From an uncultured Kiritimatiellota bacterium (GTDB lineage: Bacteria; Verrucomicrobiota; Kiritimatiellia; RFP12; UBA1067), in contig CAKTZA010000001.1 of assembly GCA_934635045.1 (NCBI GenBank), positions 82,640 through 146,639 on the forward strand: a stretch of 64,000 nucleotides of DNA, written 5' to 3'. Made by a program: the position numbers and the translations under genes. Of the stretch, positions 36,247 through 63,591 are shown in pieces (position 1 is the stretch's first letter; the number at the start of each line of letters is the position of its first letter). Below the pieces are notes generated by a model that worked only from the letters and a program-made list of their open reading frames with translations, was not told where the DNA came from and did not search any database.

Positions 36247-36313
36247 CTCACACGGGGTAACGGAGGCCCGGAGATCGGCTGGGACGCTCCGTGCCTCCGT
36301 GGCTCCGTGTGAG
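36247..36313. repeat. REP-like inverted repeat of the CTCCGTG-heptad family
   Basis: ctcacacggggtaacggaggcccggag (36247-36273) faces ctccgtgcctccgtggctccgtgtgag (36287-36313). Related copies lie at 52861-52889, 56704-56728 and 56844-56868. Confidence 0.7.
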
Positions 36314-45763: not shown

Positions 45764-45860
45764 CATTCGCCATTCGTTCATTCGACGATTCGATTATTCG
45801 ATTATTCGACAATTCGCGATTCGACAATTCGACGATTCGATTATTCGACAATTCGATTAT
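45764..45860. repeat. tandem array (~12 units) of ATTCGAnn octamers
   Basis: cattcgc cattcgtt cattcgac gattcgatt attcgatt attcgaca attcgc gattcgaca attcgac gattcgatt attcgaca attcgatt. The array abuts the stop codon (45857-45859) of the upstream SBP gene. Confidence 0.9.
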
Positions 45861-46597
45861 TTCTCCTTCAGCCGATCCGCCTCGGCCGTGTAGTCGGCGA
45901 CCCACTTCGCGAGTCGTCCGTCGGCCTTGAGCTCGGCAATCGTCTCGTTGATCGCCTTCAGCAGCTCCGGCTGGCCCTTGCGAATCGCGACGGCATATTC
46001 CTCGGTCGTGATGAAGTCGGAAATCGCAAGGTCGGCCTCGCCCTTCACGCAGTTCTTCGCGGGATCGATGTCCGCAATGACGACATCGACGCGCCCGGCC
46101 TTCAGCGCCGCAACGGCCGCCGCCGGCGAGTCGAAGCGCTCCGGCTGCTGCTTGAGCTCGTCCGTCACGAACGCCTCGCTCGTCGTGCCGCTCTGCACGC
46201 CAACCTTCTTGCCTTTCGCGTCCGCACCCTTCGCGTAGGGGGTCGCCTTCTTGTAGACGAAGACGACGCCCGTCTTCACGTAGGGAACCGAGAAGTCGAC
46301 GTTCTTCTTGCGGTCTTCCGTCACCGTGATGCCGGCGGCCGCGAGATCGGCCTTGCCCGAAATGACCGTCGGAATGACGGAATCGAAATTCACCGACTCG
46401 ACCGCAAACGCCCGGCCGAGCTTCGCCGCGACAGCCTTGCAGATCTCGACGTCGATGCCGACGATCTCCTGTCCGCGCAGGAATTCATACGGAGGGAACG
46501 TCGCCTCGGTGATCATCTTGAGCGTCTCGTCCTTCTTCGCGCAGCCTGCGAGCAGGGCCGCCGCCGCCAACGCAACCATCAGTTTCTTCATTTTCAT
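45857..46597 (-). CDS. amino-acid ABC transporter substrate-binding lipoprotein (copy 1)
   Basis: MKMKKLMVALAAAALLAGC lipobox. ..TEATFPPYEF..DVEICKAVA..SGKADLAAAGITVTEDRKK.VDFS.. Confidence 0.88.
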   Translation of the reverse strand: MKMKKLMVALAAAALLAGCAKKDETLKMITEATFPPYEFLRGQEIVGIDVEICKAVAAKLGRAFAVESVNFDSVIPTVISGKADLAAAGITVTEDRKKNVDFSVPYVKTGVVFVYKKATPYAKGADAKGKKVGVQSGTTSEAFVTDELKQQPERFDSPAAAVAALKAGRVDVVIADIDPAKNCVKGEADLAISDFITTEEYAVAIRKGQPELLKAINETIAELKADGRLAKWVADYTAEADRLKEK

Positions 46598-46648: not shown

Positions 46649-46684
46649 AATTCGACCATTCGATTATTCGATCATTCGATTATT
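46649..46684. repeat. ATTCGAnn octamer array (4 units)
   Basis: aattcgac cattcgatt attcgatc attcgatt. It overlaps the stop codon at 46680-46682. Confidence 0.85.
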
Positions 46685-47417
46685 TCTTCAGCGCATCCGC
46701 TTCCTTCGTGTACTGCGCGCGAATCGCCGCCATCTTGCCGCTCGCCTTGAGCTCGGCAATCGTCTCGTTGATCGCCTTCAGCAGTTCGGGACGCCCCTTC
46801 TTGATCGCGATGGCGTATTCCTCCAGGTTGATCGGCGTCGGCGCGATTGCGAGTTCGGCCTCGCCGAGCACGCAGTTCTTCGCCGGCTCCACGTCGACAA
46901 GCACGCCGTCGCAGCGGCCCGCCTTCAGCGCGGCGCACGCCTCGGCCGCCGAGCGGAAGCGCTCCGGCTCCTGCTTGAACTGCTCGATCACGATCGTCTC
47001 GGCGGTGTTGCCGCCCTGCACGCCGATGCGCTTGCCCTTGCAGTCCGCCGCCGTCAGGAGCGGCGCGGACTTCTTGTAGATGAGGACGATCTCCGTCTTC
47101 GCGTAGACGTCGGAGAAGTCAACGTTCTTCTTGCGGTCTTCCGTCACCGTGATGCCCGCCGCCGCGATGTCGGCCTTGCCGGACATGACCGAGGGGATGA
47201 CCGAGTCGAAGTCGACGTTCTCGACCGCGAACGTCTTGCCCATCTTCGCCGCGACGGCCTTGCAGATCTCGACGTCAATGCCGACGATCTCCTGTCCGCG
47301 CAGGAACTCGTACGGCGGGAAGGTCGCCTCGGTGATCATCTTGAGGGTGTTCGCGTCATTCTTCGCGCAGCCGCAGAGGGTCGCCGCCGCCGCCAATGCA
47401 ATCATCAGTTTCTTCAT
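46680..47417 (-). CDS. amino-acid ABC transporter substrate-binding lipoprotein (copy 2, paralog)
   Basis: MKKLMIALAAAATLCGC lipobox. About 60% identical by eye to copy 1 over the full length. Confidence 0.88.
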   Translation of the reverse strand: MKKLMIALAAAATLCGCAKNDANTLKMITEATFPPYEFLRGQEIVGIDVEICKAVAAKMGKTFAVENVDFDSVIPSVMSGKADIAAAGITVTEDRKKNVDFSDVYAKTEIVLIYKKSAPLLTAADCKGKRIGVQGGNTAETIVIEQFKQEPERFRSAAEACAALKAGRCDGVLVDVEPAKNCVLGEAELAIAPTPINLEEYAIAIKKGRPELLKAINETIAELKASGKMAAIRAQYTKEADALKK

Positions 47418-47470: not shown

Positions 47471-47519
47471 CATTCATCAATTCGATTATTCGATTATTCG
47501 TCAATTCGACCATTCGATC
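47471..47519. repeat. ATTCGAnn octamer array (6 units)
   Basis: cattcatc aattcgatt attcgatt attcgtc aattcgac cattcgatc. It abuts the NhaC stop codon at 47518-47520. Confidence 0.85.
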
Positions 47520-49332
47520 ACTTCCCCTCCATCTGCCGCACCTTGTGGCTGATCGCGTCCTCCGCGCCATCCGCCGGGCCCTTCAGAATGAGCTTGAGGA
47601 AGAAGAGCGTCGCGAGCATGAGCGCAATCGCGAGCGGCAGCGCGATCCACACCGTCCCGACGAACGGCGCGGCGATGTAGGCGACGAACGAGACCGCCGC
47701 GACCGTCAGCGCATACGGCAACTGCGTGTTCACGTGCACGATGTGGTTGCACTGCGCGCCCGCCGAGGCCATGATCGTCGTGTCGGAAATCGGCGAACAG
47801 TGGTCGCCGCACACCGCGCCCGCCATGCAGGCCGACACCGCAATAATCGTCATGGAACTGCCGGGAATCGCCGCGAGGACGATCGGGATCAGAATGCCGA
47901 ACGTGCCCCAGCTCGTACCCGTCGAGAACGCGAGGATGACCGCGATCACGAAGATGATCGCCGGCAGGAAGTTGAAGAGGCCCGCCGCCGGCCCGTTGAT
48001 GAGGTCGGAGATGAAGACCTTCGCGCCCAGCGCGTCCGTCATGCCCTTCAGCGTCCACGCGCAGCAGAGGATCATGATCGCCGGCACCATCGCCTTGAAG
48101 CCTTCCGGGAAGCCGTCCATGCAGTCGCGGAACGAGATGACGCGGCGGCAGACGTAGAAGACGACCGCGAAGACGAGCGCGACGATCGAGCCGAGCGTGA
48201 GGCCGACCGAGGCGTCGGAGTTCGAGAACGCGACGACGAAGTTGCGGTGCGCCTCGCCCTCGGCGAAGAAGCCGCCCGAGTAGATCATGCCGACGACGCA
48301 CGCGGCGATCAGCACGAGGACGGGGATCACGAGGTCGATGACACGGCCCCGGTCGTTCTTCGTGAGCACTTCCGTCGCCGTCTCCAGCGCGCCGAGGTCG
48401 GGCTTGCCGGCGGCGACATCCGCCTCATGGCGGCGCATCGGGCCGAAGTCGAACTTCATGAGCGCGAGCGCGAACATCGTGACGATCGTCAGGATCGCGT
48501 AGAAGTTGTAGGGAATCGCGGCGATGAAGAGCGAGAAGCCGCTTTCCGCGCCCGCGCCCTTCGCGAAGCCGGCGACGGCCGCCGCCCAGCTGGAGATCGG
48601 CGCGATGATGCAGATCGGCGCCGCCGTCGCGTCGATGAGGTACGAGAGCTTCGCGGCCGAGACCCTCTTCGCCTTCGTGACCGGGTGCATGACCGAGCCG
48701 ACCGTCAGGCAGTTGAAGTAGTCGTCGACGAAGATGAGCATGCCGAGGACGATCGTCGCGACCTGCGCGCCGACGCGCGACTTGATGTGCGTCTGCGCCC
48801 AGCGGCCGAACGCCGCCGAGGCGCCCGTCTTGTTCATCATCGCCACGAGCGCGCCGAGGAGGACGAGGAAGATCAGGATGCCCACGTTGTAGGCGTCAGC
48901 GATCTTCGCGATGAAGCCCGCCTGCACGACGTGCGTGAGCGCCGTCTCGAACATGCCGACGAGCCCGTCGGCCTTCGTCGCGTAGAGGACGCCGCCCGAG
49001 ACGATGCCGAGGAAGAGCGACGAGTAGACCTCCTTCGTGACGAGCGCCAGCACGATCGCGAGGAGCGGCGGGAAGATCGCCCACCACGTGCCGAACAGCG
49101 GCTCGGCCTGACGCACCGTCGCGAGCGCCGTCGCCTCGTGCGCCTTGAAGTCCCTGTCGGCCTGCACGTTGTCGGCGTACGCCTCGACGTAGGCCTTCGC
49201 GTCTTCGGCCTTCGCGAGCGCGTAGGTCTTGGCGGAATCCCCCTCGCCAACGACGATCTTGTTTTCTTCAGCGGCCCACAGGCCGCCACACAGGGCGACG
49301 AGCGCCGCACAGCAGAGGAGTTTTCGTTTCAT
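47518..49332 (-). CDS. NhaC-family Na+/H+ antiporter-like membrane protein with N-terminal secreted extension
   Basis: 604 aa. Signal-like N-terminus (MKRKLLCCAALVALCGGLWA), a ~70-aa extension, then a 12+ TM core typical of NhaC-type transporters. Confidence 0.7.
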   Translation of the reverse strand: MKRKLLCCAALVALCGGLWAAEENKIVVGEGDSAKTYALAKAEDAKAYVEAYADNVQADRDFKAHEATALATVRQAEPLFGTWWAIFPPLLAIVLALVTKEVYSSLFLGIVSGGVLYATKADGLVGMFETALTHVVQAGFIAKIADAYNVGILIFLVLLGALVAMMNKTGASAAFGRWAQTHIKSRVGAQVATIVLGMLIFVDDYFNCLTVGSVMHPVTKAKRVSAAKLSYLIDATAAPICIIAPISSWAAAVAGFAKGAGAESGFSLFIAAIPYNFYAILTIVTMFALALMKFDFGPMRRHEADVAAGKPDLGALETATEVLTKNDRGRVIDLVIPVLVLIAACVVGMIYSGGFFAEGEAHRNFVVAFSNSDASVGLTLGSIVALVFAVVFYVCRRVISFRDCMDGFPEGFKAMVPAIMILCCAWTLKGMTDALGAKVFISDLINGPAAGLFNFLPAIIFVIAVILAFSTGTSWGTFGILIPIVLAAIPGSSMTIIAVSACMAGAVCGDHCSPISDTTIMASAGAQCNHIVHVNTQLPYALTVAAVSFVAYIAAPFVGTVWIALPLAIALMLATLFFLKLILKGPADGAEDAISHKVRQMEGK

Positions 49333-52060: not shown

Positions 52061-52084
52061 AAGGATGAAGGATGAAGGATGAAG
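52061..52084. repeat. AAGGATG x3 heptamer array (pyrimidine-rich on the mRNA strand)
   Basis: aaggatg aaggatg aaggatg aag, in the grpE-dnaJ spacer. Confidence 0.9.
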
Positions 52085-52140
52085 TGCGGTGCTGCACACC
52101 TTCTTCTTGCGTCGAAGCCATCAACCGCCGACCTCCATGC

Positions 52141-52182
52141 TTCTTCCTTCTTCCTTCTTCCTTCTTACTTCTTACTTCTTAC
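52141..52182. repeat. TTCTTCC x3 + TTCTTAC x3 heptamer array
   Basis: On the mRNA strand this reads GUAAGAA x3 then GGAAGAA x3. The first UAA is the grpE stop (52179-52181). Confidence 0.9.
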
Positions 52183-52850
52183 TTTTTACCCGACGACACG
52201 ACGACCTGCGCGGCGCGCAGCACCTTGTCCTTCAGCATCCAGCCCTTCTTCGACTCGATCGAGACCTTGCCCTCGGGAATCTCCGCGTGCGGCAGATGGG
52301 CGATCGCATCCATCCGTTCCGTGTCGAGATCGAGCCCGACGGAATCGAACGGCTCCGCGCCATGATCCTTCAACGACTTCAGGAGCGTGTCGTGCACCAT
52401 CTGCACGCCCTTCACGAAGGGGTCGTCGGCCTTGTCCTTCGCGTTCGCGAGCGCGAGCTGGAGGTTGTCGACCGCCGGCAGGACGTCCTTCAGGATGTCG
52501 GCCTCGGCGTAGCGGTACGTGTCCTCACGATCACGCGCCGCGCGCTTCTTGTAGTTGTCGAAGTCGGCGAGCGTCAGAGCGTAGAGCGTCTTCCAGTCGG
52601 GCTCCTTCGGCGTTTCGGCCTTGGGCGGCTCGGCAGCAGACGGCTCGGCTTTCGGCTCGGTTTCGGGTTCGGCGGGCGAGGCGGACGCGGACGCAGAAGA
52701 CGCGCAGGACGGTTCGCCGTCTTCAGTTTTCTTTTCAGAGGGCTTCGCCGTCTCGGCTGTTTCGCCCGAAGTCTCCGCTGTCGTTTCAGCCTTCTGGGCC
52801 TCAGCGGCTTTCGCCGCCTCGGCCGTTTCCTCTTTCTTCTCTTCGCTCAT
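52179..52850 (-). CDS. grpE: nucleotide exchange factor GrpE
   Basis: Acidic/Ala-rich N-terminus, ..DFDNYKKRAARD.., and C-terminal ..GWMLKDKVLRAAQVVVS. Confidence 0.9.
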   Translation of the reverse strand: MSEEKKEETAEAAKAAEAQKAETTAETSGETAETAKPSEKKTEDGEPSCASSASASASPAEPETEPKAEPSAAEPPKAETPKEPDWKTLYALTLADFDNYKKRAARDREDTYRYAEADILKDVLPAVDNLQLALANAKDKADDPFVKGVQMVHDTLLKSLKDHGAEPFDSVGLDLDTERMDAIAHLPHAEIPEGKVSIESKKGWMLKDKVLRAAQVVVSSGKK

Positions 52851-52860
52851 CGTCCGATTT

Positions 52861-52889
52861 CCTCCGTGTCACCGTGGCTCCGTGTGAGA
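52861..52889. repeat. single-arm copy of the CTCCGTG-heptad REP-like element
   Basis: cctccgtgtcaccgtggctccgtgtgaga lies between the argG stop and the grpE start. Its reverse complement supplies the GGAGG upstream of the grpE ATG. Confidence 0.65.
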
Positions 52890-56656: not shown

Positions 56657-56905
56657 TTTAACCTAAATGCGGCAGTTGAAGTTCACCCGAATCTTTATAA
56701 GCGCACACGGAGGCACGGAGACACGGAGTTTCTTCAAGATATCACACTCCGTGGCGCAACACGCGCTTTCACCCGTTGGGTGAACAGACAGACCACAGAC
56801 GAGATGTGTTAGTTGCTAAAATCGACTTGAAATCCACGCATCTCTCCGTGTCTCCGTGCCTCCGTGTGAGACATTCGTTTCTCAACTGCTTTTTTAGGTT
56901 TAACG
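56657..56905. repeat. MITE-like element with ~70-bp imperfect terminal inverted repeats
   Basis: 25-bp perfect inverted repeat cacacggaggcacggagacacggag (56704-56728) / ctccgtgtctccgtgcctccgtgtg (56844-56868). Outer pairs are gcagttga/tcaactgc and aacctaaa/tttaggtt. There is an internal hairpin TTCACCC-gtt-GGGTGAA. Confidence 0.55.
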
Positions 56906-57855: not shown

Positions 57856-58704
57856 ATGACGACACGACCCGCGACGTTCCGAAAGGCGACCGACTGCGCG
57901 ATGCGCGGCTTCTCCGCGTGCGCGACGGCGCTTGCGCTCGGCCTCATGGCCTGGATCCTCTACGTGCTCGTGCGCGAGGGCGCGCCCGCCCTCTCGTGCG
58001 AACTGTTGACGCACGTCTCAAAGCCCTACGGCGAAGCGGACGGCGGCATTGCGAATGCGCTGCTCGGCACGGCGCTCATCACGGGCGGCGCGGCGATTCT
58101 CGCGATTCCGCCCGCCCTCGCCGCCGGCATCTACCTCGCCGAGTTCGGGCGCGAGGGGCGTTTCGCGGCATTCGTCCGCTTCACGGTAAACGCGCTGATG
58201 GGCGTGCCGAGCGTCATCGTCGGCCTCTTCGTCTACGGCATTCTCGTCGCGACGACCGGCCACTTCTCGGGGTTCGCCGGCTCGGTCGCGCTCGCGATCC
58301 TCATGTTCCCGGTCGTCGTGCGCACGGCCGAAGACCAGCTCGCAGGCGTGCCCGACACGCTGCGCGAATCGGGGCTCGCGCTCGGCGCGACGCGCGCGCG
58401 CGTCACGCTCGGCCTCGTCTGCCGCGCGGCGAAGGGCGGGCTGCTGACGGGCATTCTGCTCGCCGTCGCGCGCGTCTCGGGCGAGACGGCCCCGCTGCTC
58501 TTCACCGCGCTCTACGCCGACGCCTGGCCGACAAACTACTTCTCGGGGCCGACGGCGTCCGCGCCCGTCTTCATCACGAACGCCACGATGGACTCGCCGT
58601 TCGAGGCGATGCACCGCGTCGGCTGGGGCGCGGCGCTCGTCGTCGCGGGCGCGATTCTCGCGCTGAACATCATCGTTCGCGCCCTCGCCCAGCGCCGCCG
58701 CTGA
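57856..58704 (+). CDS. pstA: phosphate ABC transporter permease PstA
   Basis: 282 aa with ..GGIANALLGT.. and ..ESGLALGATRARVTLGLV.. (EAA loop). Confidence 0.9.
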   Translation: MTTRPATFRKATDCAMRGFSACATALALGLMAWILYVLVREGAPALSCELLTHVSKPYGEADGGIANALLGTALITGGAAILAIPPALAAGIYLAEFGREGRFAAFVRFTVNALMGVPSVIVGLFVYGILVATTGHFSGFAGSVALAILMFPVVVRTAEDQLAGVPDTLRESGLALGATRARVTLGLVCRAAKGGLLTGILLAVARVSGETAPLLFTALYADAWPTNYFSGPTASAPVFITNATMDSPFEAMHRVGWGAALVVAGAILALNIIVRALAQRRR

Positions 58705-58707
58705 AGA

Positions 58708-58833
58708 AAGGTTCTCGGCCTTGCGGCGAGAACCGCAGGACGGCCGCGATAGCCGAAGCCCGCCGCGCCGCCGAAGGAAGGTTCTCGGCCTCGCGGCGAG
58801 AACCGCAGGACGGCCGCGATAGCCAAAGCCCGC
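58708..58833. repeat. tandem duplication of a 56-bp hairpin-containing unit (period 70 bp)
   Basis: 58708-58763 and 58778-58833 differ at 2 positions. Each contains GGTTCTCG-gcct(t/c)gcgg-CGAGAACC. Confidence 0.85.
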
Positions 58834-61004: not shown

Positions 61005-61035
61005 AGTTTATCATGCTGTACTTTGCCGCGTCAAG
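61005..61035 (-). promoter_or_regulatory. promoter TTGACG-19-TGATAAACT, leaderless
   Basis: The minus strand has TTGACG (61030-61035) and TGATAAACT (61005-61013). The ATG at 60997 is 7 nt after the -10. The promoter overlaps the rsmB stop. Confidence 0.45.
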
Positions 61036-62257
61036 GACGAACCGCCCCTTCTGCGGCTTCAGGTCTCGCGGAACCGTCCTGCCGGACGAGCGCGGCGGCG
61101 AAAGCCCCGTCGTGTCCCGTCTCGAACGGCACGGACTCCGACGTCTCACGCAACGTGAAGTCGGGGTGGCGCGCGAGGAACGCCTCGACCTGTTCGCCGT
61201 TTTCCTCCGGCTCGTTCGAGCACGTCGAATAGACGAGCGTGCCGCCCAGCGCGACATGCGCCGCCGCCGCGTCGAGGATCTCCGCCTGAAGACTCACGAG
61301 CTCGGCGAGCTTCGCCTCGCTCCAGTTCCACCGCGCATCGGGCCGCCGCCGGAAGACCCCCGTGTTGGAGCACGGCGCATCGACGAGAACCTTGGGGAAA
61401 TGATCGAATGGTCGAATCGTCGAATAATCGAATGTCTGAGAATTGAGCCGCTTGTCCCTCACGTCACGCAAGTCCCCAACGACTTTCACGTCCGCGAGCT
61501 TCAGCCGCCGCAGGTTCTCCTCCAGCCGCGCGCGGCGGCGCGGGTTGATCTCGCACGCCGTCACGTCCGCCCCGCGCCACGCGAGCTGGACGGTCTTGCC
61601 GCCCGGCGCCGCGCAGGCGTCGAGGATGCGTTCGCCCGGCTGCGGATCGAGCAGCGCGACCGCGAGGTGCGTGCCCGGATCCTGCACGATGAAGTCGCCC
61701 GTCGCAAAGCCGGGCACGTCGGACACCTTCTGTCCGCGTTCGAGCTGCGTGAACGTGCCGTCCTTGCGCGCAAGGTAGGTGACGGCCGGCGCGTTGTGCC
61801 ACGCGGCGAGCCGTTCGGCGTTCGCCGCGCCGAACCGCGCCGTCCAGCGGCGCACGAGCGCCGTGGGGAACGTCTCCAGCTCCGTGCCGAGCGAGACGGA
61901 TGCGCGCTGGCGGATGAGATTGCGCAGAACGCCGTTGACGACGCGCGCAATGGACGGGTTCTCGCACGCCTTCGCCGCGCTGACCGTCTCGTTGACCGCC
62001 GCGAAGTCGGGCACGTCGTCCATGTAGAGAACCTGCGCCGCGCCGACGTAGAGCAGGGCCTCCAGCTCGCCCTTCGGCCACTGCTTCACGAACGCGCCGA
62101 GGATGTGCCGCAGGGGGCGCAGCCGCCGGATCACCGTGTAGACGAGATCCTGCACGAACGCGCGATCCGGCCCATCGGGCAGGAGGTTCGCGGGGAACTC
62201 CTTCGTGAGCAGCCAGCGGGCGACGACGAACGCCGCCGTGCGACGCGCGTTCGTCAC
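61031..62257 (-). CDS. rsmB: 16S rRNA (cytosine-C5)-methyltransferase RsmB/Sun family
   Basis: NusB-like N-terminus and SAM MTase core (ILDACAAPGGKT .. VLVDAPCSNTGVFRRRPDARW .. LVYSTCS). GTG start at 62257 overlaps the upstream stop (GTGA). Confidence 0.85.
   Translation of the reverse strand: MTNARRTAAFVVARWLLTKEFPANLLPDGPDRAFVQDLVYTVIRRLRPLRHILGAFVKQWPKGELEALLYVGAAQVLYMDDVPDFAAVNETVSAAKACENPSIARVVNGVLRNLIRQRASVSLGTELETFPTALVRRWTARFGAANAERLAAWHNAPAVTYLARKDGTFTQLERGQKVSDVPGFATGDFIVQDPGTHLAVALLDPQPGERILDACAAPGGKTVQLAWRGADVTACEINPRRRARLEENLRRLKLADVKVVGDLRDVRDKRLNSQTFDYSTIRPFDHFPKVLVDAPCSNTGVFRRRPDARWNWSEAKLAELVSLQAEILDAAAAHVALGGTLVYSTCSNEPEENGEQVEAFLARHPDFTLRETSESVPFETGHDGAFAAALVRQDGSARPEAAEGAVRP
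61394..61434. repeat. octamer-array element embedded in the rsmB coding sequence
   Basis: The plus strand reads GGGGAAATGATCGAATGGTCGAATCGTCGAATAATCGAAT, which is 37/40 identical to the reverse complement of 47488-47527. In rsmB it encodes ..FDYSTIRPFDHFP.. Confidence 0.85.
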
Positions 62258-63591
62258 TCCGCCCCCAGTGCGAGGCCGACCTTCGCGAGATCCTTCGCGT
62301 CGAGCGCGTAGACGGGATCGATCTCGATCGGCACGTCCTTCGGAACCGTCATGCCGATCTCGGCGAACCACTTTGTCCACTTCGCCCGCAGGTCGGCCTG
62401 GCACGTCGCGGGCGAGTCATTGCCCTCGGCGTTCTTGACCGGCGAGAACTCCTCCTTTTGGTCGAACGCGAGAAACGCCGCGCGCTTCGCCTTCGGCAGG
62501 ATGTCGAAGATGAACTTCTCGAACTTGTAGCCGTTAGGCTCCTTCGGCTGGACGACCTTGCCCTTCTCGACGAACGGAATCTTCTTGAACGCGAGGTGGA
62601 GCGGCATCGCCTTCGCGGCCTCGCGGGCGAGGAACGCGCGGTCGAAGACATGGATCGCTGGCGAGCCGTAGAGGAAGTAGAGCTTGCCGTCCTTCTCGCG
62701 CAGGCACTGCTCCTTCGTCATCTCGGTGTACTCGACCATGCGGAAGGTCTTGCCGAACTGCATCGGGATGCCGACCTTCTCGAACGGGTCGCGCTTCGCG
62801 CAGAGCTTGAGCGAATACTCCGACTTCTGGAGCACGTGGTAGCCGATGAACGCCGGGTCGGCGATCTCGACGAGCGGGTTGTCGACCTGGAAGAAGAAGA
62901 CGGACTTGATGCCGCGCGCGCGCATGTCGTCCAGCGCGCCCGAGCGACGGAGCGCCGCGAGCAGGCCACCGTGCCCGTCCGGGCTCATGAAGATGTGTCC
63001 GGGACGGTCGAGGATGATCTTGCCGTCCTTCGTCATGCCGGGCCACATGCCCTGCGTGAAGAAGAAGACGTTCTTCGGGTCGAGACCGAAAAAGTCGTTC
63101 TCCTCAAAGCACCGCTGCGTCGCCGCGTTGTTCGCCTCGCTCGTCATCACGTAGAACGGGATCGTCGCGCCGTAGCGGATCGACCGCGCGAGAATCTTGC
63201 GCGCGTGGAAGTAGAAGAGCGGCGCGCCGGTGATCGGGCCGATCGCGTAGCAGCCCTTCGGGCCGTCGTAGCCGAGACGCGAACCCTGCCCGCCCGCGAC
63301 GAGGAGCGCCGCGACGCGCCCGGTGCGCAGTTCCTTCTCGCCGGCGGCAATCGCCTTCTTCAGCGCCGCGCCCGACAGCTCGGCGACCTTCGGCGCCAGC
63401 CCCGTCGAGGAGTCGAAGCGGTCACCGCCCGTCTCCAGCGCCGCCGCGCACTGCTTCAGGCTCTTCGGCTCGATCGTCGCGATCTGCGCGAGCAGTTCCT
63501 TGCGCTCGTTCTTCGCGAGCCTCTTCCAATAGGCGAGCACGTGTTCCTGCCCGCACGACTTCAGCAGCCTCTCGGCCTCGGTGTAGTTCAT
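62254..63591 (-). CDS. UDP-sugar pyrophosphorylase of the UDPGP (eukaryotic UAP1/UGP-like) family
   Basis: 445 aa with ..LLVAGGQGSRLGYDGPKGCY.. and ..PDGHGG.. motifs. Confidence 0.8.
   Translation of the reverse strand: MNYTEAERLLKSCGQEHVLAYWKRLAKNERKELLAQIATIEPKSLKQCAAALETGGDRFDSSTGLAPKVAELSGAALKKAIAAGEKELRTGRVAALLVAGGQGSRLGYDGPKGCYAIGPITGAPLFYFHARKILARSIRYGATIPFYVMTSEANNAATQRCFEENDFFGLDPKNVFFFTQGMWPGMTKDGKIILDRPGHIFMSPDGHGGLLAALRRSGALDDMRARGIKSVFFFQVDNPLVEIADPAFIGYHVLQKSEYSLKLCAKRDPFEKVGIPMQFGKTFRMVEYTEMTKEQCLREKDGKLYFLYGSPAIHVFDRAFLAREAAKAMPLHLAFKKIPFVEKGKVVQPKEPNGYKFEKFIFDILPKAKRAAFLAFDQKEEFSPVKNAEGNDSPATCQADLRAKWTKWFAEIGMTVPKDVPIEIDPVYALDAKDLAKVGLALGAE

Follow-up and report, generated by a model that had tools for sequence, protein, structure and literature searches.

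The rsmB gene and its repeat-bearing loop

The window analyzed here, a stretch of 64,000 nucleotides from an uncultured Kiritimatiellota bacterium, carries on its minus strand the gene rsmB (61031..62257, 408 codons plus stop), which encodes a protein of the 16S rRNA m5C967 methyltransferase family. This assignment is based on the Pfam domains of the ORF (Methyltr_RsmB-F and NusB), on the best-matching homologue, E. coli Fmu/RsmB (1SQF, E=2e-47 by sequence), and on a Foldseek comparison of the RsmB model with 1SQF (TM 0.84). The catalytic motifs of RsmB are intact. The conserved start is a GTG at 62257 and overlaps the stop codon of the UDPGP-family gene that lies upstream. The same start was called independently on a near-identical metagenome contig, confirming the 408-codon open frame described in the first-pass annotation of this DNA. 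The minus-strand ORF is free of stops over 61031-62404 and reads ...NSQTFDYSTIRPFDHFPKVLVDAPCSNTG... / ...LNSQTFDYSTIRPFDHFPKVLVDAPCSNTG... through a repeat.

On the plus strand, positions 61394-61433 read GGGGAAATGA TCGAATGG TCGAATCG TCGAATAA TCGAAT. The segment starts with an element head, GGGGAAATGA (61394..61403, plus strand), which matches the consensus GGAAATAA/GGAAATGA of the family heads that precede arrays. The head is followed by four TCGAAT cores at 8-nt spacing, TCGAATGG TCGAATCG TCGAATAA TCGAAT (61404..61433, plus strand), which were recovered by an octamer scan and by TRF (period 8, 4.5 copies at 61399-61434). The cores are antisense to rsmB and encode FDYSTIRPFD, while the head supplies, on the minus strand, the RsmB codons for (D)HFP. 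As reported initially, the minus-strand translation of 61394-61433 is FDYSTIRPFDHFP, lies directly upstream of the DAPCS strand of RsmB and leaves the ORF intact.

The loop insert comprises RsmB residues 261-288, and the E. coli protein is 12 residues shorter at this place. An AlphaFold2 model of RsmB, built with 47 orthologues, had a mean pLDDT of 90.4. The sole internal segment with a pLDDT below 50 was formed by residues 269-284 (KRLNSQTFDYSTIRPF), located between the strands 258-260 and 287-293. The first-pass annotation had proposed to examine whether the segment forms a surface loop; in the model the insert is the only internal loop predicted with low confidence. Strand 287-293 leads into DAPCS, and since the insert thereby abuts the motif IV strand (KVLVDAPCS), it may affect RsmB activity.

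Most species of the genus have a loop of 9-15 residues between ..VKVV and KVLVDAPCS, usually ending with F-D. The insert is lacking in the homologues from E. coli, Thermus and Pyrococcus and in about 35 other species of the genus. All species whose rsmB loop contains array sequence group in a single clade, and its sister L063 is short-looped. The octamer family itself is abundant in the genomes of the closest species, L001-L009 and L055 (4-163 pattern matches each), with no match in 23 of the 24 other sampled genomes of the genus; the 16 genomes sampled from other families of the order lack it altogether. The repeat segment is a lineage-specific insert in rsmB that derives from a dispersed family, and the proposal of a lineage-specific insertion in a conserved, intact gene was thus borne out.

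A dispersed family of head-plus-octamer arrays

The plus-strand segment 61394-61433 is identical to the reverse complement of 47488-47527 at 37 of 40 positions (three mismatches). This match, the starting point of the first-pass annotation, held on recount, and it is the sole one in the window with at most three mismatches to the rsmB 40-mer; no further match was found at this threshold, and none was expected from 100 shuffles. The second site lies at the end of a gene of the Na+/H+ antiporter family (NhaC), whose last codons at 47518-47527 (..M E G K stop) contain GGGGAA, again as described. GGGGAA is however not a non-repeat flank, as had been assumed, but the conserved head of the whole repeat family of 57 arrays. 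The NhaC-end copy (47480..47527, minus strand) consists of the head-like GGGGAAGTGA (G K stop) and five TCGAAT units, with the array itself spanning 47480-47517, and is sense to the operon mRNA. Two more copies lie on the minus strand of the window. At 46650..46688 (array 46650-46679) the head AAGAAATAA precedes four TCGAAT units, and its TAA is the stop of a first binding-protein gene. At 45772..45866 (array 45772-45856) the head GGAGAAATAA is followed by about eleven octamer units in two blocks, and its TAA is the stop of a second binding-protein gene. All three minus-strand arrays of the window thus start exactly at stop codons, namely those of the Na+/H+ antiporter-family gene and of two genes for family-3 solute-binding proteins. 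In total, 19 octamer-pair matches were observed in the window, compared to 0.55 expected.

The genome (3.69 Mb, 65% G+C) contains 57 arrays of at least three TCGAATNN units. When these were lined up in sense orientation, the eight positions before the array revealed the consensus G G A A A T A A, kept in 36, 43, 43, 51, 53, 53, 40 and 44 of the 57 arrays, respectively. Members of the family thus combine a conserved purine-rich head (GGAAATAA-like) with TCGAATNN octamers in tandem downstream of it. The rsmB copy has at least three tandem units, a period of 8 nt, the TCGAAT core and a head directly 5' of the first unit. Convergent array pairs with the heads outward occur at eight or more loci of the genome. 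A strict rule, by which the head belongs exclusively to the element, was rejected, as 21 of the 33 GGAAATAA sites are without an array.

The close match between rsmB and the NhaC end could mean that a 40-nt segment moved directly between the two sites, for example by ectopic gene conversion. The NhaC-end array is the closest of all genomic arrays, with three mismatches to the rsmB 40-mer (the next copies have 4, 5, 5, 5, 5, 5 and 5), and the loop swap between near-identical strains described below shows that array exchange is possible at the rsmB site. However, 34 of the 40 positions belong to the family-invariant head or core, leaving the spacers and a few head bases to discriminate between copies, and 27 genomic sites lie within seven mismatches. 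Since 57 arrays share the same head and the next copies differ by only 4, 5, 5 and so on, the 37/40 match is the top of a family continuum and no evidence for a private transfer. Furthermore, the rsmB array is almost unchanged in species L001 (three differences over the 84-nt loop), while L103 and L104 have NhaC-end arrays very unlike that of the window, and therefore the two sites do not share a common history. The sequence GAG GGG AAG TGA at the NhaC end is native coding sequence, as the array-less relative L109 ends the gene alike (..VDGK stop), and the rsmB insert, judged from its relatives, began as a convergent array pair. We consider a direct copy very improbable. What remains of the claim that a repeat was copied into a housekeeping gene without destroying it is the repeat-derived insert in an intact rsmB; a direct exchange between the NhaC end and rsmB is not supported, given 57 arrays with the same head and the different histories of the two sites.

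The position of the arrays relative to genes is far from random. At 20 of the 43 non-coding arrays, a coding-like ORF (at least 100 codons) on the same strand ends 0-23 nt upstream, whereas the figure for random positions, used as a control, is 2.4% (odds ratio 35, p=2e-20). Five of these 20 ORFs end exactly at the head's own stop. Coding-embedded copies beyond rsmB, which the first-pass annotation had suggested to look for, exist as well: 14 arrays, that of rsmB among them, lie within genes, in a frame with coding-type GC3 both before and after the repeat. In-frame arrays are carried by at least ten genes, and Pfam domains were recognized next to or across the array in those for RsmB, an amidohydrolase, CarB, a DEAH helicase, EtfA, a prepilin peptidase, an ABC ATPase, ThrC (threonine synthase), Era and PyrK. 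The same head-array architecture was seen in PyrK, Era, CarB and an OppC-like permease. The antisense orientation of the rsmB copy is not a rule, since seven of the 14 in-gene arrays are sense and seven antisense.

An AA or GA spacer after the final T of a sense-oriented core yields TAA or TGA. The 8-nt period rotates the frame, and therefore three units with AA/GA spacers stop all three frames. Such stop-capable spacers were less frequent in embedded arrays (31% vs. 51%, p=0.02). Embedded sense arrays carry TGG, TTG or TCG at the stop-prone phases and encode peptides such as IEWSNGRMVEWSNGRI. The antisense unit ATTCGANN yields a stop only with the rare spacers TA or CA; antisense arrays encode the peptide pattern I-R-x-F-D-x-S-x, and RsmB shows the same pattern. 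For genome annotation it follows that low-GC patches of such repeats inside genes are neither frameshifts nor assembly errors.

History and turnover of the rsmB loop

In L003, L004, L005, L055 and P0020 (L006/L007 lineage), the rsmB loop consists of GGGAAATAA-(TCGAATNN)n, a spacer and (NNATTCGA)n-TTTCCCC. The left arm of this double array reads GGGAAATAA-TCGAATGG-CCGAATCG-TCGAATAA-TCGAAT and is followed by the short spacer; the right arm reads ATTCGATT-ATTCGATT-...-ATTCGATC-ATTTCCCC. The double array is in frame and encodes the peptide NNRMAESSNNRI...RPFDYSIIPSFDHFP. L006 has the left (sense) arm only, while L007, the window and L001 have the right (antisense) arm only. On the basis of these comparisons, the rsmB copy of the window is best read as the surviving arm, with head and four units, of an older convergent double element. 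DNA comparison with L003, L004, L005 and L055 delimits the left part of the loop in the window (61434..61477, minus strand), which encodes GDLRDVRDKRLNSQ and part of a T; at this position the four relatives carry the sense arm, GGGAAATAA plus TCGAAT units. The left part would, judging from these relatives, have replaced a decayed sense arm. Its sequence, GGGGACTTGCGTGACGTGAGGGACAAGCGGCTCAATTCTCAGAC, is unlike any array, and a search across the genome for a second copy or donor found none.

Other relatives carry entirely different repeats in the same loop. We found CCAAACNN octamers (QTSQTF...) in L002, P0016 and P0017, a AATCAAAC-type array in L009 and an array of ACTTTCA heptamers in L075. 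The right boundary, TTCCCC followed by AAG, is kept in all loop alleles of the clade. L002 was considered as an ancestral empty site and rejected, because its DNA holds a different octamer array, CCAAACNN, with the TTCCCC boundary, i.e., a replacement. Replacement was also found between strains. The contig L207 from a human gut metagenome has flanks 99.5% identical to the window (eight mismatches over about 1750 nt), and its loop is a wholly different 108 nt of antisense GGAAGAR/GGATGAR heptamers (ESLTPETAPRPPASSPHPSSLFPHPSSFFLLPSSFP). The GGAAGAR heptamer family is also dispersed in the genome; an exact donor for the L207 loop was not found in the genome search, in which the best match was 55/60.

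The nearest relative of the window changes along rsmB: it is L002 for the 5' two thirds (0.96-0.99 identity) and L001 for the loop and the 3' part. The gene is thus a mosaic among its closest species, which makes allelic exchange of the loop by homologous recombination plausible. One loop of PyrK behaves alike: four genomes have a TCGAAT double array there and another four CCAAACNN arrays, while the loop of the remaining relatives comprises 3-8 residues. The rsmB loop is a hot spot in which the array content turns over between species and strains. A single enzyme loop can thus act as a landing pad whose repeat family is exchanged from strain to strain, which turns such loops into natural experiments in insertion tolerance. 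Loops of the RsmB/PyrK type also offer sensitive strain markers for gut Kiritimatiellia.

Eleven other same-species variants, found on 28 contigs, all have the TCGAAT allele, 408 residues and the same loop length, with only two point changes. This exact conservation fits short-term neutrality, and it fits selection as well. The array might be a functional element, either a frameshift-prone on/off switch of rsmB, given that gain or loss of one 8-nt unit shifts the frame, or an antisense site that couples the rsmB mRNA to the arrays at 3' ends. In favor of such a role, the loop length is identical in the 11 variants, and strong duplexes with sense arrays are predicted (-53 to -83 kcal/mol). The duplex between rsmB and the NhaC-end array RNA has a predicted energy of -83 kcal/mol, compared to -31 +/- 5 kcal/mol with a shuffled partner. 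The complementarity of about 40 nt between the two mRNAs that had been noted is hence real. It is not specific, since other sense arrays are predicted to pair with rsmB too (-53 and -56 kcal/mol), which makes the RNA duplex a property of the family. Against a switch speaks that no unit-number variant was seen among the 11 variants and 28 contigs, although such a set of predicted proteins could contain too few frameshifted alleles. In P0014, the only variant with a frameshift, the break lies downstream of the array. Moreover, the heterogeneity of the units disfavors slippage, and relatives freely replace or lose the array. We therefore give a functional role of the array very little credence.

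Origin of the arrays and comparison with known repeat systems

Our preferred reading, to which we assign a probability of roughly 0.8, is that the rsmB segment is the surviving arm of a clade-specific head-plus-octamer element, a tolerated passenger that originated through slippage or template switching and was disseminated by recombination. According to this reading, the ancestor of a small species group of gut Kiritimatiellia would have gained a convergent array pair in the length-variable RsmB loop, between the strand ending with VKVV and the motif IV strand (KVLVDAPCS). The insert would persist because the antisense unit ATTCGANN is nearly stop-free, the net length is a multiple of three and the loop is disordered and tolerant. 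Arrays would then decay and be remodelled, with lineages retaining the left arm, the right arm, both arms or other repeat families, and whole loop alleles would pass between strains and species via homologous recombination. The peptide in RsmB probably has no function of its own.

The arrays themselves would arise and change without a transposase, with GGRGAA-like motifs seeding slippage during replication or template switching. We infer this origin because the spacers of the two arms differ, composite arrays mixing several unit types exist, the genome has an excess of period-8 repeats and head-like motifs occur as native sequence. Genome-wide there are 554 period-8 triplets but only 93 with period 7 and 63 with period 9, and the excess is seen across several unrelated unit sequences. 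Transposition is disfavored because no target-site duplication was visible at the rsmB or PyrK boundaries in comparison with array-less orthologues, and no Y1 transposase is linked: of seven weak PF01797 matches (Y1/RAYT) in the genome, none has an octamer pair within 2.5 kb. The head might belong to a mobile unit or be a native target; NhaC, and perhaps the sister lineage's rsmB, has a head-like motif of native origin.

Slippage could also have acted purely locally, so that the rsmB array grew in place from the native TTC GAC (F-D of FDKVLVDAPCS), with no insertion at all. The native TTC GAC context already holds the repeat core ATTCGA. In line with this, the array-less L014 reads ..CAG ACA TTC GAC AAG.., matching the antisense unit CATTCGAC over 7-8 nt, and the window reads CAG ACA TTC GAT TAT TCG ACG.... 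Growth in place would however leave unexplained the head TTTCCCC at the outer edge, the sense arm with its own head in L003, L004, L005 and L055, and the like architecture in PyrK, Era, CarB and the OppC-like permease. In addition, the array is confined to genomes that carry the family elsewhere. We regard a local origin as quite improbable and retain the surviving-arm reading, within which microhomology may have guided where the array settled.

A further possibility concerns the G-rich head (GGRGAA...), which may be an anchor and not cargo, with 7- and 8-nt arrays being repeatedly rewritten there in this lineage. Three unrelated repeat families (TCGAATNN, GTTTGGNN and GGAAGAR) all begin at the CTTGGGGAA boundary in the RsmB and PyrK loops, one strain differs from the window solely by the swapped array, and the NhaC end and the outgroup PyrK contain native head-like motifs. 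We think such an anchor unlikely; if it were true, it would imply an active, site-anchored generation of repeats, by a dedicated enzyme or by very specific template switching, and would also explain the caps at stop codons.

Among known systems, the closest precedents of the rsmB repeat are Rickettsia palindromic elements (RPE) and TAACTGA repeats. RPE were reportedly described by Ogata et al. in Science in 2000. They are in-frame selfish repeats in many genes (MITE review, PMC10969869). Like RPE, the present repeats are a dispersed, hairpin-capable family found between genes and in frame in unrelated housekeeping genes, where the host protein stays intact and gains a peptide. RPE are however units of 100-150 bp with unique sequence in an intracellular alphaproteobacterium, whereas here, in free-living gut Kiritimatiellia, a head is followed by a variable number of 8-nt units, often in convergent pairs, and the non-coding copies are tied to stop codons. 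This comparison is one of unit structure.

TAACTGA heptamers are direct repeats that are mostly intergenic and occur in Beggiatoaceae, Cyanobacteria and Bacteroidetes (MacGregor 2015, PMC4679880). Forward TAACTGA repeats have stops in all three frames, so that only an overlap with gene ends is possible, while reverse sets are found inside ORFs, in one case where an RNA polymerase beta-prime-like protein has a variable surface loop (PMC4679880). Both properties, stopping of the frames in one orientation and translatability in the other, hold for the oriented short tandem repeats of TCGAATNN as well. The TAACTGA unit differs in length (7 nt), sequence and position, which is mostly just upstream of start codons. 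The TCGAATNN unit has 8 nt, its arrays start at or after stop codons, sense copies are embedded too, the head is conserved and convergent pairs are common.

The inverted pairs of short, hairpin-capable repeats and the many decayed single copies are shared with REP/REPIN sequences. Unlike REP/REPINs with their RAYT, no Y1-transposase-like gene has an array within 2.5 kb here, and the arms are tandem arrays with spacers unmatched between them. The two convergent, outward-headed arrays in relatives and at eight or more genomic loci might correspond to the terminal inverted repeats of MITEs, but the rsmB copy of the window is one-armed. A target-site duplication, as in MITEs, is not visible at the rsmB and PyrK boundaries. 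The heptamers of cyanobacterial STRRs are comparable short-unit repeats, and both they and long simple sequence repeats share with our family a lineage-specific excess of tandem repeats with 7-8-nt units. As far as the account in PMC4679880 goes, long simple sequence repeats with units of 5-11 nt (Mrazek, Guo and Shah 2007) have in-gene units that are mostly multiples of three. In contrast, the 8-nt units described here are in frame in at least ten genes and have a fixed head.

A literature search on repeats in Kiritimatiellae found no paper. The present analysis adds the ancestral double array in rsmB, the number of in-gene copies and their confirmation in sense and antisense orientation, the RsmB and PyrK hot spots that receive several repeat families, and the loop swap at strain level. 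The octamer family provides a handle on the long-unexplained origin of bacterial repeat families with 7-8-nt units. The case shows that, in an uncultured gut lineage, essential genes can take up in-frame tandem repeats with unit lengths not divisible by three, irrespective of orientation.

The RsmB loop in a conspecific allele and in other relatives

The RsmB loop that carries the antisense TCGAAT array in the window is filled differently in another allele of the same species. This allele (L207:1501-2751), which originates from a Hadza gut metagenome contig, is 99.5% identical in its flanks to window 61031-62257, but instead of the 84-nt loop it has antisense GGAAGAR/GGATGAR heptamers spanning 108 nt. 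This allele also occurs in a second genetic background, represented by P0024. The rsmB of genome G003 (L075), from a species devoid of TCGAAT arrays, carries a heptamer array, ACTTTCA/ACTTTAA, at the equivalent loop, where it is translated as FQLSTLNFKLF.

Compared with the related sequences L001 and L002, the window rsmB (61031-62257) is a mosaic: the 5' two thirds are nearest to L002, and the loop together with the 3' part is nearest to L001. This pattern suggests interspecies recombination. Two frameshifted rsmB versions were also observed, both with the lesion away from the array, in P0014 after ..NTGVFRRR and in L055:3001-4139 upstream of the SAM-binding motif. These versions are either assembly errors or pseudogenes.

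Arrays in and next to other genes

Among the pyrK orthologues (L183-L204; C98:4254-4283 in the genome under study), four genomes have a TCGAAT double array in one of the PyrK loops, and four others have CCAAACNN arrays at the same position. Elsewhere among the orthologues this loop comprises only 3-8 residues, and one outgroup sequence shows a native AAGGGGAAA at the array site. An amidohydrolase gene about 2 kb past the right end of the window contains a further array, in sense orientation (C1:148684-148729). This array consists of six perfect TCGAATGG units, translated as IEWSNGRMVEWSNGRI, and is the most homogeneous of the TCGAAT family and therefore the most slippage-prone.

In many relatives (L107, L108, L110, L114 and others) the antiporter-family gene runs on into a C-terminal domain of about 95 residues, reading ..FRKFAQSVN..ADGKID..EESA.., whereas in the clade of the window (47518-47580) the gene ends after about 19 residues (..HKVRQMEGK). 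A domain has been gained or lost where the arrays begin.

Further repeat families

Octamers of a second family, CACGGAGN / CTCCGTGN, lie at window 36287-36309, 52862-52884, 56705-56728 and 56843-56867. This family is the commonest period-8 repeat genome-wide; a third has the unit GTGGAANN. Heptamer arrays are found in a spacer at window 52061-52084 (AAGGATG, 3.4 copies) and 52140-52189 (CTTCTTA, 7.1 copies), and are of the same kind as those replacing the rsmB loop in L207. Finally, a 70-bp unit is present in two copies at window 58696-58833 (94% match, TRF score 248).
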